Below the pieces are notes generated by a model. That model was not told where the DNA came from. It did no database searches and worked only from the letters and a program-made list of their open reading frames with translations. A stretch of 64,000 bases of DNA from Nitrososphaeria archaeon (GTDB taxonomy: Archaea; Thermoproteota; Nitrososphaeria; JACIWG01), in the NCBI GenBank assembly GCA_050011875.1, contig JBEKIG010000012.1, positions 11,278 through 75,277 of the forward strand. The letters run 5' to 3'. Each line of letters starts with the position of its first letter. Positions within the stretch are counted from its first letter, which is position 1. Shown in pieces: positions 15,247 to 26,425 of this stretch. Made by a program: the position numbers and the translations under genes.

Positions 15247-15918
15247 ATGGGTATGAGCTACATTATCGTGGATCACAGAGAGTCCAAGTCTTCGGTGCCA
15301 TTTCTGTTAAAGGAAATGGGCATCAGAGTTGAATTCAAATTTTTGGAAATTGGTGATTACATTATAAACTCTGAAATAGCTGTTGAAAGGAAGACTCTAC
15401 ACGATTTTATTTCCTCTCTATTTGATGGCCGCCTATTTCAACAGGTAGACCGTCTCTCATCAAATTACTCTTCACCTTTTCTGATAGTTGAAGGGAACTA
15501 TAGCGAAATTGAGGTATACGTTCAAAATCCGAAGTCAGTATACGGTGCATTAGTGTCCCTTCTGTTGATCTATAGGATCAATTTGATCAATGTACCTTCT
15601 GAAAGAGAAACAGCTGTTGTGCTGTCTTCATTAGCTAAACAATTTTCTAGGAAGCCCTCTTATTCCATAAAACATGCAAAGAAAGAAAGCTTCATAGACC
15701 AACAGATTTACGTTATTTCTTCTCTGCCAAGTGTGGGAAAAACGATTGCCACCAGGCTCCTGGAGCAGTTTGGTTCACCAAAGGAAGTTTTCCTAGCCTC
15801 TACTGACGAACTTGCAAAAATTAAAGGCTTAGGGCCTAAAAGAGCAAGAGAAATAAGATCATTGCTTGATACTTCATGGAAAAGATACAGAAATTACTTC
15901 GAAAACATAGGCAAATAA
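15247..15918 (+). CDS. xpf: Short XPF/ERCC4 structure-specific nuclease
   Basis: VDHRE, GDY, VERKT..DF..S..DGRL and tandem HhH; no helicase domain. Confidence 0.9.
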   Translation: MGMSYIIVDHRESKSSVPFLLKEMGIRVEFKFLEIGDYIINSEIAVERKTLHDFISSLFDGRLFQQVDRLSSNYSSPFLIVEGNYSEIEVYVQNPKSVYGALVSLLLIYRINLINVPSERETAVVLSSLAKQFSRKPSYSIKHAKKESFIDQQIYVISSLPSVGKTIATRLLEQFGSPKEVFLASTDELAKIKGLGPKRAREIRSLLDTSWKRYRNYFENIGK

Positions 15919-15950
15919 CCTTTTTATTCTCTTAAAATCAACCAAAAAAC

Positions 15951-16553
15951 ATGAGCAATAATAGCACAAAGGTCAAAGACAAGGCTATTATTCTCTTAGA
16001 CGTAATCAAGGAAAATTTATCTCAACTTGAAGAAAAAGAAGTTGAACAGTTCATCGAAATTCTGAAATCCCATAAAAATAATAAACTCCTAATCATGGGT
16101 GCAGGAAGAAGTGGACTTGTCGGACGGGCCTTCGCAATGCGTTTGCTTCACCTAGGCTTTAATGCATTCGTCCTCGGAGATACAATCGTGCCTTCAATAG
16201 ACAAGGACGACCTAGTTATTGCTATATCTGGCTCTGGTTCTACGAAATTGATTGTTACAGCTGCTCAAGCAGCTCAACAAGTTGGCGCTAAAATTGTATC
16301 CTTAACGTCTTATCCTTCTTCGCCACTTGCTAAACTATCAACTCATACGGTGCTTCTTAGAGGTCGAATAGAAGTGTCTACAAAAGACTATTTTGCAAGG
16401 CAGATATTAGGTTTGCATGAACCTCTAGCCCCTCTCGGCACTGTCTTTGAGGATAGCGCGATGTTGCTTCTGGATTCTGTCATAGCATCATTGATGGTGC
16501 AACTTAATGTTGAAGAGGCAGAGATGCGTAGGAGGCATGCCAACATCGAATAG
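15951..16553 (+). CDS. hxlB: 6-phospho-3-hexuloisomerase
   Basis: GAGRSGLV, FAMRL.HLG, ISGSGST, APLGT.FE, HANIE terminus. Confidence 0.95.
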   Translation: MSNNSTKVKDKAIILLDVIKENLSQLEEKEVEQFIEILKSHKNNKLLIMGAGRSGLVGRAFAMRLLHLGFNAFVLGDTIVPSIDKDDLVIAISGSGSTKLIVTAAQAAQQVGAKIVSLTSYPSSPLAKLSTHTVLLRGRIEVSTKDYFARQILGLHEPLAPLGTVFEDSAMLLLDSVIASLMVQLNVEEAEMRRRHANIE

Positions 16554-16607
16554 ATTTACCAAAATCTTTTAAAAGTATCTGTTTAGTGGTTTAGTGTATG
16601 ATTTACT

Positions 16608-18831
16608 ATGCCAAGATATAAGTCTACTACGGAAGCATTAAAGATAATAGGCAACAAAGATCAGATTCGAAAGGCCTAGAAATAACAATTCTAGCCCGAA
16701 TTATCTGGGCGTTGTTGCTCACGTAGACCACGGTAAAACGACAATGAGCGATAGCCTCCTAGCCGCATGCGGTATGCTCAGTCCTTCCCTCGCTGGGCAA
16801 GCGCTAGCTCTGGATTATATGGACTTGGAACAACAAAGGCAGATGACCATCAAAGCAGCAAACGTCACACTTTACTATGAGCAAGATAATGTTCCATATG
16901 TTATTAACCTTATCGACACACCTGGTCACATCGACTTTACCGGTAGAGTTACGAGAAGTTTGCGCGCAATCGACGGTGTTGTTGTTGTTTCTGATGCAGT
17001 TGAAGGCGTAATGACGCAGACTGAAACCGTTACTAGGCAGGCTTTAGAAGAGAGGGTTCGTCCTGTACTTTATATTAATAAGATTGATCGATTAATCAAG
17101 GAACTTAAGCTTCCACCTGAAAAGATGCAGGCTTGGCTTGCGAACATTATTAACGATTTTAATAATCTGATTGATATATATGCTGAGACCGAATATAAAG
17201 ATAAGTGGAAGGTTAGCATACAAGATAGCAGCGTCGCTTTTGGTTCAGCAAAAGACAGATGGGGCTTCAACTTTACGACCACTCAGAAGAGAAGTGTAAA
17301 ATTCAGCGATATCTACAAGGCTTATGAAGAAGGTGATATGAAAACTCTCTCGGAAAATTTTCCGTTACACGAAGCCATTCTTTCAATGGTTATTAAACAT
17401 CACCCACCTCCACATGTCGCTCAACGATATCGTATTCCAAAAATATGGAAGGGTGACCCGGATTCTGAAATCGGTCAATCGTTGGTTAACTGCGATGAAA
17501 AGGGTCCGATCGTAATGATGGTTACAAACGTTGTAGTGGACCCTCAAGCCGGAGTCGTCGCCGTTGGAAGGCTGTTCTCTGGAACAGTTCATGATGGTGA
17601 TGTAGTATACCTGCACGACGCTAAGACTCAAGCGAGGATACAATCGGTTAACATGTTCATGGGTCCTTTTAGAGAACTCATAGGTGTCTTAGGTTCTGGC
17701 AATATACCTGCTCTGCTAGGACTGGACGCCGCCAGGTCAGGAGAAACGGTTTCCTCAGTCAAAGATATAACACCATTTGAGGTGATAAAGTACGTTTCCG
17801 AACCTGTTGTCACAATTGCTGTTGAGCCAAAGTTTCCGCGTGATCTACCTAAATTGATTGATACCTTAAGAAGAATCTCTATCGAAGACCCAAACCTCGT
17901 CGTCAAAATCAATGAAGAAACAGGAGAAATGCTGATGGCCGGTATGGGTGTATTACATCTTGAAATCGCAACCACTCTCATACAACAGGCAGGGCTTGAA
18001 ATTGTGACGACTGAACCTTTGATTAACTATCGTGAGACAATCACAGGTTCAGCAGGTCCAATCATGTCCAAATCACCTAATAAACATAACCGCATCTTCA
18101 TCAAAGTAGAACCCCTTACCCCTGAAATAATTGAATTAATCAGGAATAACACAATCAACGAACAGCTTGATAAAAAGACGGTGGCCAAAATATTAAGAGA
18201 GCACGGCTGGGACGCAGATGAAGCGAGGAATGTTGTTTTAGTTGATAACAAAGGAAACATATTCGTTGACGCAACTAAGGGTGTACAATTTATGCAAGAG
18301 TCAATAGATTCGATAAAGGTTGGTTTTTCGAATGTGATGGAGAATGGTCCTTTAGCGCAGGAAGCGTGTAGAGGCATTAAAGTTATACTTCATCACGCAG
18401 AATTTCACGAGGATTCAGCACATAGAACATATGCGCAGCTTCTACCGGCTTCTAGAAGCGCAATATTGGGTGCAATGCTCCTAGCGAATCCAACGCTTCT
18501 CGAACCGATATTAGGTATCGAAGTCAAAGGAAGCAGCGATCTTATAGGTGCTATCGCAGGTGTTATTTCAGGTAGAAGAGGAAGAATGCTTGATGTCCAA
18601 CAAAAGGGTATTCTGACGATAATCGAGGGCGTAATTCCTGCATCTGAAACATTCGATCTTAGTGAAGCTATGAGGGGAGCTACGGCAGGTAAAGCTATGT
18701 GGAATACCCATTTCAAAGAATGGAATATAGTTCCCCAAAGTCTATTACCGCAGTTAATCGTATCAATCAGGAAGAGGAAGGGTCTAAGCGAAACGTCACC
18801 TACAGCGGATGAGTTCATCGACAAAGAATGA
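16608..18831 (+). CDS. fusA: Elongation factor EF-2, two exons: join(16608..16671,16703..18831), 730 aa
   Basis: Exon 1 MPRYKSTTEALKIIGNKDQIR is the typical EF-2 N-terminus; exon 2 gives LGVVAHVDHGKTT, DTPGH, NKID and the domain IV HED..HR motif; the two parts are in different frames separated by 31 nt. Confidence 0.93.
16672..16702 (+). other. 31-nt bulge-helix-bulge intron in EF-2 mRNA
   Basis: UCAGA(16661-65)/UCUGG(16704-08) outer helix; UUCG(16666-69)/CGAA(16697-700) 4-bp central helix; 3-nt bulges AAA(16670-72) and UUA(16701-03); inner GG-CUAGAA/UUCUAG-CC stem; removal yields codon AAT (Asn) in frame. Confidence 0.88.
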
Positions 18832-19110
18832 TCATCCATACCCTTTTCCTATGTTTTCTTCCTCAGCATTCTTCCACTCCTTTAGAAAGTTCTTTAATAT
18901 TCTAGTTGACTAACTATCGACTAAGCTGATAATCCTTATCTTGCCGAATCTTTTTTGCATTATTAATCCATTTCTTCAAGTTCGATTAGGTACTTTATTG
19001 CTAATGGATAGGCTATTTGCGTTCTTCTCAAAAGCGCAGAAATATTAATTTCTTCTTCCTCTAATAGTATTTGCAATATCTTAGACTTTCCACTGCTGCA
19101 GAAGGATTCT
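18832..19110 (-). pseudogene. Decayed ArsR-like winged-helix gene
   Basis: Reads SGKSKILQILLEEEEINISALLRRTQIAYPLAIKYLIELEE / LIMQKRFGKIRII across a frameshift and internal stops. Confidence 0.6.
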
Positions 19111-19114
19111 TATT

Positions 19115-19300
19115 AGGCCAGAATTGGGTATATTTTAGAGGTTCCGTGTTATATTTTTTACAAGTTACATCATATTCTGCTCTAATTCCTTTGATGTAAC
19201 CTTTTCTCCAAAGTTCTCCTTTTAGCATCTTCGATAATGATAAGAGTATGAACTTCCCGTGATCATCTAAATAGCTCAGTCCTCTTTTCCAATCCTTGAT
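19115..19300 (-). pseudogene. Cdc6/Orc1 C-terminal winged-helix remnant
   Basis: LSYLDDHGKFILLSLSKML...EYDVTCKKYNTEPLKYTQFW resembles the Orc1/Cdc6 WH consensus (L..H.K.LL.A...EY..VC..Y..EP..HTQFW); no start and no AAA+ domain. Confidence 0.55.
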
Positions 19301-19464
19301 ATTAGGTCTACAGTTTCACTTTTTACTGCAAAATATGTTAGGGCTCGGCACTCAAGATCTATCTCATGAAAGATCGATGCCGTTTTTCCTCATCGCCCTA
19401 CAAAAATATATTTAATAACTAATTTATAGACGTTTGTCTTGGAACCAAGCAGACAGGCGATGAT

Positions 19465-19884
19465 ATGGTAGAAATAAATCTAACTGTACATTTGGATAAA
19501 GTAAGGTATTTTCTCATAGATAGCACATGTCGCTCTTTCATGCCTATTAGTTATCTTAAAGATCCAGAAGTCTTTCCCGAAAAAGAGAACGGCCCAGGAT
19601 CGATATACATCGAAGCTGTTGATAAAGTGACCTTAACCAAAATTCAAGATATCACATTTGTTGACGCCAAAGATATTTTAGGAATCATATACGTATCAAA
19701 AAGTGGTAATACTAAGTTGAAGTGGAGGCAGATAAGGGGGAGGATGGGGAAACTGATTGGTAAGGCTTCCACGAATTCCTTGGTCAACTTGGTAGAATCT
19801 GGGATTTTATCAGTTGATCAGGTAAGGACTATTGTCTCTAAACAGGAGGAAGAGTCGCCCTCTGAGCCTCCAAAGGAAGTTTAG
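19465..19884 (+). CDS. Conserved hypothetical protein
   Basis: 139-aa ORF with upstream AT-rich TATA-like element and normal composition; function not recognised. Confidence 0.7.
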   Translation: MVEINLTVHLDKVRYFLIDSTCRSFMPISYLKDPEVFPEKENGPGSIYIEAVDKVTLTKIQDITFVDAKDILGIIYVSKSGNTKLKWRQIRGRMGKLIGKASTNSLVNLVESGILSVDQVRTIVSKQEEESPSEPPKEV

Positions 19885-20809
19885 TCCATCTCATAAATTC
19901 TTCGCTTGGTCTTTCATTTTGATAAAGTTCTTCACGCTTTGCCTCCAGCAGTAGGTTTGGCTTATCTTGATATTCCGCAAAGGTTTGCACTCTGTTTCCA
20001 AATTTTTTAGCCTTCCTGTTTAATTCTCTTACAAAGTCTAATGTTCTAAGGTCTCTTAGGAGGTGATGGTCAAGTATCATCAGCTTCGTCTCTTCTATAA
20101 GTCTACTAAGATTTCTTTTCGCCTGCTCAATATTTTCTTCATTTACGTTGCTTAGGTAAGTTGGTGGTCCCCCTATAATTAAGACATCGGGTTTCTCTTT
20201 TAAAATAAAGTCAAGCGTTTTATTCGATATTGGACCTTGGACGTCTGATGCGTGTATAAAAGTTAAGTCTCTACTTCTGAATATTGTTGCTAGAACATAT
20301 CCTAGTTTGCTGCCCTCTTCTCCATGATACAGTGGTTCACTGAATTGGATCGTAGTTCCTCCATAGTAAAAGCTCCTGCCATCTGCCTTGTAAACCATTT
20401 TGGCGACATTTTTGAGTAATTTAGAGAAGATCCATCCCCTTCCTTTCTGACTATAATTGATGGAGGACTTAAAATCCTTGATGTATACTATTTTGTTTGA
20501 ATACACTTCCTCTGCCACTTTCTTGTCGCACCAAGTCCACTTGGTGTCCAAAGTGCTGAAAAACGGTGAGAAATGATCATAATGATAATGAGAAATGACT
20601 ACCACATCACTTTTTGCTGCGTAGTAAGCTATCTTTTTCTTAGCCTCTCCTAGAGCCTTATATTCTAATGTATGAGGGAGTAAACCATTCCTTGGACCTA
20701 GAGCTGCACCCGCATCTATTAGAACTTTGATATCAGGTGTTTCTACATATGTTGAGGTAGACCTGACTCCTAGGCTTTCAGCGCATAGTGGCTTGACTAG
20801 TATTTTCAA
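19838..20809 (-). CDS. MBL-fold metallo-hydrolase (UPF0282-like)
   Basis: AESLGVRS, ISHYHYDH, HASDVQGP, GGPPTYL, LDHHLLRD. Confidence 0.88.
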   Translation of the reverse strand: MKILVKPLCAESLGVRSTSTYVETPDIKVLIDAGAALGPRNGLLPHTLEYKALGEAKKKIAYYAAKSDVVVISHYHYDHFSPFFSTLDTKWTWCDKKVAEEVYSNKIVYIKDFKSSINYSQKGRGWIFSKLLKNVAKMVYKADGRSFYYGGTTIQFSEPLYHGEEGSKLGYVLATIFRSRDLTFIHASDVQGPISNKTLDFILKEKPDVLIIGGPPTYLSNVNEENIEQAKRNLSRLIEETKLMILDHHLLRDLRTLDFVRELNRKAKKFGNRVQTFAEYQDKPNLLLEAKREELYQNERPSEEFMRWTKLPLEAQRATLPPV

Positions 20810-25011: not shown

Positions 25012-25902
25012 CTATCGAATCACCATTTTTTCGGCAATAAATGCTATGAAACCAAGCAGCATTCCAATTAAAGCAAATTTTTTAACACGATATACATTTG
25101 CGCTCGAATAATTTTTTAGTATTGAGTAAGAGAGATAAACAAACAGTGCGTCAGGAACCATCACCATGGCCAAATACAGTATCCCTGCTTGTTTTGAGAG
25201 GTAAGGTCCAAAGGTGGAAAACACCGCCAGGATAAAAAGAGTTGCACCAGCTCTAGCAGAATTTTCTTCTCCAATGGAATGAGTTATCGATTTGACTCCT
25301 CTTGTTCTATCCCCTTCTGCGTCAGATATCGTTTTTATGACTTCTCTCCCTGTAACAGCTAAAAAGGACACTATAACAGCCCAGAGAAGCAAGGAAGATG
25401 AGCCTAAAAAAAATGTGCCTTGAATAGTTGGAACCACAGCAGCTGAGACCACGCTACCGTAGATGTAGGGAATCGAGGTTGAAAGTGCGACCGTCAGATT
25501 TCCGATAATTCCCTGTTTCTTTAGATAGAAGTTGTAAAACCAAGATATGAATCCAAATACTACAGTGATAATGAATCCTGTCAGGCTTGTTAATAATGAG
25601 AATACTATGCCGAGAAAAAGTAATGTTATAGCATAAGCCCAAGCTACAGAAATTTTTATTTCACCTTTGACAAGAGGTCTATTCAGCCGATTAACACGGT
25701 CAACCTCTATATCATAAATATCATTGACTACCATCGAGAAACTTGCGACAAAGAAGCCAGTTAAAAAACCAAAAAGAGTTTTCCATACGAGAACCGCCTG
25801 CAAAGAAGTAAGAATGACACCGATAATTACGGCCGCGCCTACCATAACGCTATTTGTAGGCCTGATCATCTTAAAGTACGTGTTTAAACTAATTTTCTGC
25901 AT
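25012..25902 (-). CDS. UbiA-family digeranylgeranylglyceryl phosphate synthase
   Basis: RP.N, NDIYDIEVDRVN..NRPL..G, REVIK.ISDAEGD; multiple TM segments. Confidence 0.9.
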   Translation of the reverse strand: MQKISLNTYFKMIRPTNSVMVGAAVIIGVILTSLQAVLVWKTLFGFLTGFFVASFSMVVNDIYDIEVDRVNRLNRPLVKGEIKISVAWAYAITLLFLGIVFSLLTSLTGFIITVVFGFISWFYNFYLKKQGIIGNLTVALSTSIPYIYGSVVSAAVVPTIQGTFFLGSSSLLLWAVIVSFLAVTGREVIKTISDAEGDRTRGVKSITHSIGEENSARAGATLFILAVFSTFGPYLSKQAGILYLAMVMVPDALFVYLSYSILKNYSSANVYRVKKFALIGMLLGFIAFIAEKMVIR

Positions 25903-26425
25903 TAAAGACCGCCTCAGATATCTGATAATATATCACTTCTCCCCTTCTATCTATAACTGCTATGATAGATTTCTTCCCCATCCTTTTAATATCAATAGCA
26001 TCCTGTACGATCTTCTCAAATCTAACATCATTTCCTTCATTTAAAACGAAGACAACATATTTTGCTGTCTTTTTACCATATTCCCCTTTATCGTAGACTC
26101 TAAAGTCAACCCCGAAACCGAAGCCTTCTTTGACAATAAAACCTCTGCTCCTAAGGTCTCTATAGACTAGAAATCTGGTTAGAATTTCCTTATCTTTATT
26201 GTAGAGTATGCCTATTAAACTGTCAAAGTTTATGATCTTCTTCTTTCCAATCACGTCAACCCTATTAATACTGCAAAGATAGAGCGCTTCATAGGGGTTC
26301 AACACAAGACTCTTTCTTTCCTTTTCTCCAAATCCACTCTGGTAAAGTTCTTGGGCATCATCAAAATTTTCAATAACAATGCGATTTAATTTTAACTTTC
26401 CAGAAAGTCTTGTTTCCTGACCCAT
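25889..26425 (-). CDS. endA: tRNA-splicing endonuclease subunit, probably structural (beta) subunit
   Basis: L...EALYL, FLVYRDLRSRG, GFGFGVDFRVY, AVIDRRGEVIYY; the catalytic His position reads KKTAKY, so no His. Confidence 0.85.
   Translation of the reverse strand: MGQETRLSGKLKLNRIVIENFDDAQELYQSGFGEKERKSLVLNPYEALYLCSINRVDVIGKKKIINFDSLIGILYNKDKEILTRFLVYRDLRSRGFIVKEGFGFGVDFRVYDKGEYGKKTAKYVVFVLNEGNDVRFEKIVQDAIDIKRMGKKSIIAVIDRRGEVIYYQISEAVFNAEN

Follow-up and report, generated by a model that had tools for sequence, protein, structure and literature searches.

We analysed a 64,000-nucleotide (nt) stretch of DNA, hereafter the window, from assembly GCA_050011875.1, a genome of an uncultured Nitrososphaeria lineage, in which the gene for archaeal translation elongation factor 2 (aEF-2, here EF-2) is split between two reading frames. 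An ATG at 16608 begins 21 EF-2 codons, and the frame that it opens ends at TAG 16677-16679, giving an open reading frame (ORF) at 16608..16679 with the translation MPRYKSTTEALKIIGNKDQIRKA. The P-loop and the other 706 codons of EF-2 lie in a frame that differs from that of these first codons. The next EF-2 ORF that is called starts at ATG 16744 (MSDSLL...) and has 695 amino acids (aa); it scores 822 bits against the aEF-2 model TIGR00490, only over profile positions 35-718, so that the N-terminus and the P-loop are missing from the called ORF. The P-loop, LGVVAHVDHGKT, is coded upstream of 16744 in the same frame as this ORF, and in the window that frame holds no ATG, GTG or TTG ahead of the P-loop. 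A first-pass annotation had attributed this layout to an intron of the tRNA type, removed at a motif of the bulge-helix-bulge (BHB) kind. Re-reading of the sequence and the ORFs confirmed all its coordinates, and the ORF list agrees with its placing of the two frames and with its expectation that gene callers give a truncated EF-2 without the P-loop.

The features at the junction of the two frames are as follows.

16608..16671, + strand: exon 1 of aEF-2, comprising the ATG, 21 codons (MPRYKSTTEALKIIGNKDQIR) and the first base of an Asn codon.
16661..16665, + strand: outer helix, 5' strand UCAGA, pairing with 16704-16708.
16666..16669, + strand: central 4-base-pair (bp) helix, 5' strand UUCG, exonic, pairing with 16697-16700.
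16670..16672, + strand: 5' bulge AAA, with the predicted 5' cut after 16671.
16672..16702, + strand: putative 31-nt intron, containing the in-frame TAG 16677-16679.
16673..16696, + strand: inner hairpin GGCCUAGAA / UUCUAGCC, whose stem contains one bulged C and whose loop has 7 nt.
16697..16700, + strand: central helix, 3' strand CGAA, intronic, pairing with 16666-16669.
16701..16703, + strand: 3' bulge UUA, with the predicted 3' cut after 16702; A16703 is the first exon-2 base.
16703..18831, + strand: exon 2 of aEF-2, running from the second base of the Asn codon through LGVVAHVDHGKT... to the stop.
16704..16708, + strand: outer helix, 3' strand UCUGG, pairing with 16661-16665.

Excision of 16672-16702 (31 nt) joins CGA A|AT CTG, which reads R-N-L, and the product spliced in silico (64 + 2126 nt) is an aEF-2 of 730 codons plus a stop. 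Exon 1 aligns with residues 1-21 of the EF-2 of an intron-less relative (15/21 identical) and exon 2 with residue 23 onward; residue 22 is the Asn whose codon is split. These alignments, together with the relatives described below, agree with the earlier proposal that cuts at 16671/16702 restore the motif IRN ahead of the P-loop in a 730-aa protein. The predicted tryptic peptide across the junction starts at Asn22 and would be NLGVVAHVDHGK in the window and NFGVIAHVDHGK in Nitrosocaldus. There is one EF-2 gene copy in this 97%-complete genome.

The interruption has the anatomy of a BHB motif: two 3-nt bulges on opposite strands with a 4-bp helix between them. In the window it is flanked by helices on both sides (the hBHBh' form), the outer one of 5 bp and the inner one of 8 bp plus one bulged C, formed by GGCCTAGAA at 16673-16681 and TTCTAGCC at 16689-16696. 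In each bulge the cut made by EndA, the tRNA splicing endonuclease, follows the second base, a rule consistent with the tRNA-Met and tRNA-Pro control from this genome (see below). In the spliced product, a 5-bp stem of exon bases would close the 7-nt loop UUCGAAA. The geometry is identical to that of pre-tRNA introns at position 37/38, and the EF-2 intron sits where 37/38 would be in this loop; the host RNA differs in being an mRNA without a tRNA body, and neither Rfam nor ARAGORN found a tRNA at the insert.

Taken by itself, the window shows an apparent frameshift and a premature stop, as would a broken, decaying gene or an insert produced by misassembly. The window's order (family f1) is represented in the collection by 10 species genomes. 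An insert at the same codon, hereafter site 1, was present in 9/9 of those having an EF-2 5' end, with lengths of 26, 30, 30, 31 (five times) and 32 nt; the tenth genome (G005, 76% complete) gave no EF-2 match. We searched 401 genomes across the class, obtained an EF-2 match in 389 (no claim is based on five genomes flagged as unpublished), and then examined 33 further 5' ends. The first 20 of these were chosen for short or stop-containing frames and so form a biased sample; the other 13 completed families f11, f13 and f14. The site-1 insert was present in 10/10 genomes of f11, which includes Candidatus (Ca.) Nitrosocaldus, in 4/4 of f14, which includes a Ca. Nitrosomirales record, and in 1/1 each of f19 and f20. 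It was not found in f13 (0/10), in the single genomes examined in f10, f12 and f18, or in the f2, f4, f5, f6 and f7 genomes examined. Altogether we obtained 31 distinct site-1 sequences from five families and independent assemblies (alignment A3). One of the genomes, G115, is assembled as one contig and is 99% complete, and its single EF-2 match carries the insert at its 5' end.

With a covariance model built on the nine f1 sequences we scanned 151 genomes sampled from the class. The model matched 12 genomes, namely 9/10 of f1 (the window's genome included) and 3/3 of f11, each with one sense-strand match, at EF-2 only. There was no match in 81 f5, 9 f2, 14 f3, 8 f6 and 17 f7 genomes. On the EF-2 tree, 5 changes of the site-1 label are needed, at least 3 of them forced by well-supported branches, and a topology that holds all site-1 genes in one clade passes the approximately unbiased (AU) test (p = 0.15). 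A single origin with later losses is as plausible as several separate gains. The site-1 intron is in either case old or mobile within Nitrososphaeria.

Because the insert is conserved in independent assemblies, we regard the pseudogene and artefact readings as excluded for practical purposes, and we give them scarcely any credence. The exons are intact and conserved, the gene is single-copy and essential, and the compensatory stem changes described below are expected neither of a decaying gene nor of an assembly error.

The 31 site-1 introns are 16-63 nt long, those of Nitrosocaldus 37-63 nt, and they fall into all three frame classes (length modulo 3 is 0 in 7, 1 in 21 and 2 in 3). Whatever the length, every one of them has an in-frame stop 3-7 codons past the Arg codon, and excision after the second bulge base gives ...QIRN[LF]G[VI][VI]AHVDHGKT in 31/31. 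The four pairs of the central helix are invariant (31/31). The 5' bulge is AAA in 24/31 and AAT in 7/31, and the 3' bulge is TAA in 16/31, TGA in 11/31 and TTA in 4/31. The three outer-helix pairs adjoining the bulge are likewise kept in 31/31. The insert at the same codon and the compensatory stem changes are what the first-pass annotation had proposed to look for in the 5' ends of relatives.

Two other candidates were considered for the insert. An intein at site 1 is rejected, as the insert is 31 nt long and contains a TAG, with homologues of 16-63 nt in all three frame classes. A group I or group II ribozyme, or another curated RNA family, is also rejected: there was no Rfam match with E <= 1 in 16500-16900, and ribozymes are ruled out because 16-63 nt is far too small.

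For Ile-Arg ahead of the junction, the codons are ATT CGA in every one of the 31 genes with the intron and in 1/56 contexts that lack it, indicating that the exon half of the central helix constrains codon choice. Exon 1 is represented by 28 distinct DNA sequences and always has 21 codons. Its variable columns are concentrated at third codon positions (18/21, as compared with 10 first and 9 second positions), and pairwise codon differences comprise 2,348 synonymous and 1,537 non-synonymous ones. From this pattern we conclude that exon 1 is translated in that frame and is under protein-level selection. In 27/31 contexts the exon-2 frame has no start codon ahead of the P-loop.

Two further explanations were weighed. 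In the first, the gap would be crossed by translational recoding, either ribosome bypass (as in phage T4 gene 60) or frameshifting, and no RNA splicing would be needed. A hairpin and an in-frame stop directly after the last exon-1 codons do superficially resemble a bypass signal. However, there are no matched take-off and landing codons that give the right frame: the only repeated codon is CGA, whose second copy at 16697-16699 continues ATT ATC TGG, out of the EF-2 frame, and the TGA-bulge forms in relatives are equally out of frame. Moreover, the gap varies from 16 to 63 nt, whereas the geometry of 4-bp helix and 3-nt bulges is invariant, which is a need of EndA and not of the ribosome. We consider recoding very improbable.

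In the second, the BHB would be a cleavage signal only, by which EndA or another nuclease down-regulates the EF-2 mRNA without productive ligation. EndA does process substrates other than tRNA, such as the 5' untranslated region (UTR) of HVO_1309 in Haloferax, according to the excerpted text of PMC7714728. Yet the DNA offers no other route to an EF-2 that bears the P-loop, given the single copy and the 27/31 contexts without a start codon; exon 1 is conserved as protein, and excision restores the frame exactly in 31/31. Cleavage without ligation is, in our estimate, just as hard to credit as recoding.

We next consider the tests of the RNA structure itself. Among the relatives the inner stem shows double-sided changes at 6/9 model pairs. 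Paired cells in alignment A3 amount to 89.1%, as compared with 81.8% in shuffles (0/500 as high), double-change cells to 49 versus 19.8 (0/500), and the covariation score to 0.257 versus 0.125 (0/500); A3 was fitted to the model structure, which biases pair counts toward that structure, and the sequences are kin, so that shuffle statistics overstate independence. In a control with the partner columns slid, pairing was 23-61%. RNAalifold recovers the central helix, the inner helix and the 5' bulge. The 61-nt segment of the window folds with z = -2.36, and 6/200 shuffles fold equally well, so that folding by itself is only moderately supportive. The centroid fold contains both helices and the AAA bulge, but U16666 pairs with A16703 and not with A16700, with an equal number of pairs.

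Several of these observations weigh against a BHB intron in EF-2, beginning with the fitted alignment and the kinship of its sequences. Energy-based folding does not pick the canonical register over its alternative, given the U16666-A16703 pair of the centroid, and RNAalifold fails to recover the outer helix and makes the central one longer by a pair. In most relatives three weak pairs make up the outer helix, and 25/31 sequences leave pair 13-94 open. The description of the motif as a textbook BHB accordingly holds for the window, with its outer helix of 5 bp, and fails for most relatives. Finally, a genome-wide scan for BHB motifs that join reading frames gave no excess, with 1,024 real matches versus 1,060-1,131 at eight decoy cut positions, although the EF-2 site itself passes the filter. 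The first-pass annotation had suggested scanning the genome for BHB motifs at other apparent frameshifts, and no enrichment over decoy cut sites emerged. The loose motif has 29,546 matches on both strands of this genome, and such a scan is not specific enough to find further mRNA introns. The chance of a BHB motif at one given pair of site and length is about 4.1e-5, and this is the relevant figure because homology demands exactly that pair. The weight of the case rests on conservation and covariation in relatives, rather than on folding.

A query for RNA sequencing runs covering 16200-17400 listed none. We also searched metagenome contigs for the ligated junction with a degenerate 20-nt motif. 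This gave 77 matching stretches, 13 of which are EF-2 5' ends, several on long contigs. Each of the 13 lacks the intron and comes from another lineage (MPKFKSTQD..., MKYKSTEQV... and the like), and none has f1-family exons. They belong to ammonia-oxidiser-like lineages and spell the junction CAR ATT CGA AAT YTN GG, equal to the predicted ligated exons.

Metagenome contigs L157, L160, L162, L166, L169, L172, L174, L188, L195, L203, L209, L213 and L218: intron-less EF-2 with the junction.

These genes show that the sequence predicted for the ligated exons also occurs uninterrupted in nature. Its spelling is either what precise loss of the intron would leave or that of an empty target site.

The genome also encodes the enzymes of tRNA splicing. 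Two ORFs of the EndA family, both with PF01974 and PF02778, encode proteins of 182 aa (contig C9, L036:1234-1782) and 178 aa (in the window).

25889..26425, - strand: EndA-family subunit of 178 aa (PF01974 79 bits, PF02778 49 bits).

From the catalytic residues, compared by eye, the 178-aa protein is apparently a non-catalytic, beta-like subunit and the 182-aa protein alpha-like; together they are the enzyme that would be expected to cut the intron. About 9 kb separate the intron-bearing EF-2 gene from the beta-like gene downstream of it, and the alpha-like gene is on the separate contig C9. There is one RtcB (565 bits). ARAGORN finds 50 tRNAs in the genome, 9 of them with introns. A strict parser that uses the same geometry and the same cut rule turned tRNA-Met and tRNA-Pro into intron-less tRNAs (2/8 intron-bearing genes tested); the other six gave no parse under the strict criteria. 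A further ARAGORN call, on contig C13 of G000 (17266-19999), is a tRNA-Thr(CGT) with a 2,637-nt 'intron', and it is a false call, a long intron or a split tRNA gene.

Together these results lead us to the view, to which we assign a probability of about 85%, that the EF-2 coding sequence carries a tRNA-type archaeal BHB intron that is spliced from the mRNA. In the primary transcript, exonic UUCG would pair with intronic CGAA between the two 3-nt bulges, flanked by the inner intron hairpin and the outer exon-exon helix. The two-subunit EndA would cut after 16671 and 16702, and RtcB would join the 2',3'-cyclic phosphate and 5'-OH ends, as it does for the 37/38 tRNA intron, the 31-nt intron probably leaving as a circle. 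The ligated mRNA would read ...DQIR-N-LGVVAHVDHGKT... and code for the 730-aa EF-2, while unspliced mRNA would yield a 23-aa peptide only. Cleavage, ligation and circularisation in vivo are steps that we infer from the sequence.

The promoter of the gene can be proposed as well.

16567..16574, + strand: TATA-like box TTTTAAAA, about 34 nt upstream of the ATG.

The surrounding CCAAAATCTTTTAAAAG is kept in most f1-family loci inspected, with one substitution in L004, and the box is likely to be the promoter of a short-leader EF-2 mRNA. Two genes of ordinary appearance lie upstream of EF-2 at 15247-16553; one codes for a short nuclease of the XPF/Hef type (223 aa) and the other for a 6-phospho-3-hexuloisomerase (200 aa).

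The first-pass annotation knew of no BHB intron in EF-2, and our full-text literature search, with subscription journals outside its scope, likewise found no report of one. A BHB intron has reportedly been described in crenarchaeal cbf5 pre-mRNA (Watanabe 2002; Yoshinari 2006; Yokobori 2009). The cbf5 intron of Crenarchaeota resembles the EF-2 intron in being a short BHB type within a coding sequence, in its presumed cutting by a hetero-oligomeric (two-subunit) EndA, and in a patchy distribution that implies gain and loss. In contrast, the EF-2 intron lies in another host gene (aEF-2) and another phylum (Nitrososphaeria), and its motif is a canonical 3-4-3, whereas cbf5 introns are often relaxed forms. 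The cbf5 gene of this genome is uninterrupted (TIGR00425 positions 5-322, no internal stop). In the part of Yokobori 2009 that holds its Table 1 (PMC2738675), the cbf5 intron is listed for neither Cenarchaeum nor Nitrosopumilus, and an excerpt of Schwarz 2020 (PMC7714728) gives cbf5 as the only mRNA BHB intron reported by then besides that in the HVO_1309 5' UTR. According to the same excerpt the HVO_1309 intron of Haloferax volcanii is also a case of an mRNA as substrate of the tRNA splicing endonuclease; it sits in an untranslated leader and has been demonstrated by experiment, whereas the EF-2 intron interrupts the frame of an essential gene and is a prediction. By its sequence, the EF-2 intron is very probably a real and new case among the rare archaeal mRNA BHB introns.

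A broader parallel is found in eukaryotes, where HAC1/XBP1 mRNA is spliced by IRE1 and a tRNA ligase or RtcB. There, likewise, a short intron leaves the mRNA through the joint action of a protein endonuclease and a ligase of the tRNA type, and the translated frame changes with it. The nuclease, however, is IRE1 and not EndA, the RNA motif is another one, and the splicing is a demonstrated stress switch, whereas for the EF-2 intron a regulatory role is speculative. Splicing of the HAC1/XBP1 type is mentioned in the excerpted text of PMC13149111.

Site 1 is not the only interruption of this stretch of EF-2. In four genomes, G318 and G332 (f16) and G284 and G374 (f15), a 28-29-nt insert lies within the P-loop Lys codon (site 2).

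L062:88-144, L063:88-145, L064:88-145 and L065:88-145, - strand: site-2 BHB-like intron of G318, G332, G284 and G374, respectively.

It has a 5' AAA bulge, a covarying hairpin and a central helix ACGG/CCGU, which in f16 is ACGG/CCGA with one mismatch. Its 3' cut position falls in an internal loop, which a long exon-exon helix closes, and excision restores HGK-TTMSD. One nt from site 2, between the P-loop Lys and Thr codons (GK|T), the EF-2 genes of G008, G010, G035, G044 and G036 carry an intein.

L032:60-1898, - strand (G008), and also L033, L034, L135 and L136: EF-2 intein of the LAGLIDADG type.

The inteins are about 520-610 aa long, in frame and free of stops (the tallied length for G010, L033, looked incomplete); the G008 intein, of 613 aa, has matches to the families LAGLIDADG_3 and Intein_splicing. 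The intein shares with the BHB intron the same 13-codon stretch of the same gene, and differs from it in being long, in frame, stop-free and removed at the protein level. In G008 both occur in one EF-2 gene, the site-1 intron 36 nt upstream of the intein, so that this EF-2 would need RNA splicing and protein splicing. We observed, in addition, that the P-loop coding region of the window at 16709-16760 folds as an exon hairpin, GCUCACGUAG... / ...CGACAAUGAGC, and that site 2 (G318, G332, G284 and G374) and the intein, in the genomes that carry it, sit in the loop of the equivalent P-loop hairpin.

Three kinds of insertion, namely BHB site 1, BHB site 2 and a LAGLIDADG intein, thus fall within 13 codons. 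According to an excerpt of Krupovic 2019 (PMC6563490), the gene that casposons target most commonly in Thaumarchaeota is that for EF-2. It is possible, though unlikely, that the P-loop DNA is a recurrent landing pad for selfish elements, the mini-introns being stripped-down, formerly homing introns or a co-opted checkpoint. Any regulatory or mobile-element role of the intron is speculative, and most likely it is no regulator but a neutral passenger whose splicing is obligatory. If a checkpoint did exist, the activity of EndA and RtcB would be a condition for making new EF-2; translation capacity would be tied to tRNA maturation, and the arrangement would be an archaeal counterpart of HAC1/XBP1-type control.

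In the literature that we searched, the documented archaeal mRNA BHB introns comprise one in a coding sequence (cbf5) and one in a 5' UTR (Haloferax). The EF-2 case would place a BHB intron in a universally essential, highly expressed translation factor, directly ahead of its GTP-binding loop. Gene callers will give an EF-2 without P-loop in these lineages. Since EF-2 commonly serves as a phylogenetic marker, calls of a truncated gene or a 'pseudogene' distort annotation as well as estimates of completeness. The phylum with the EF-2 intron includes cultivable thermophilic ammonia oxidisers (Ca. Nitrosocaldus), which makes experimental proof straightforward. With two intron sites and an intein in 13 codons, together with the published casposon targeting, EF-2 may serve as a model for the pile-up of selfish elements in conserved DNA.

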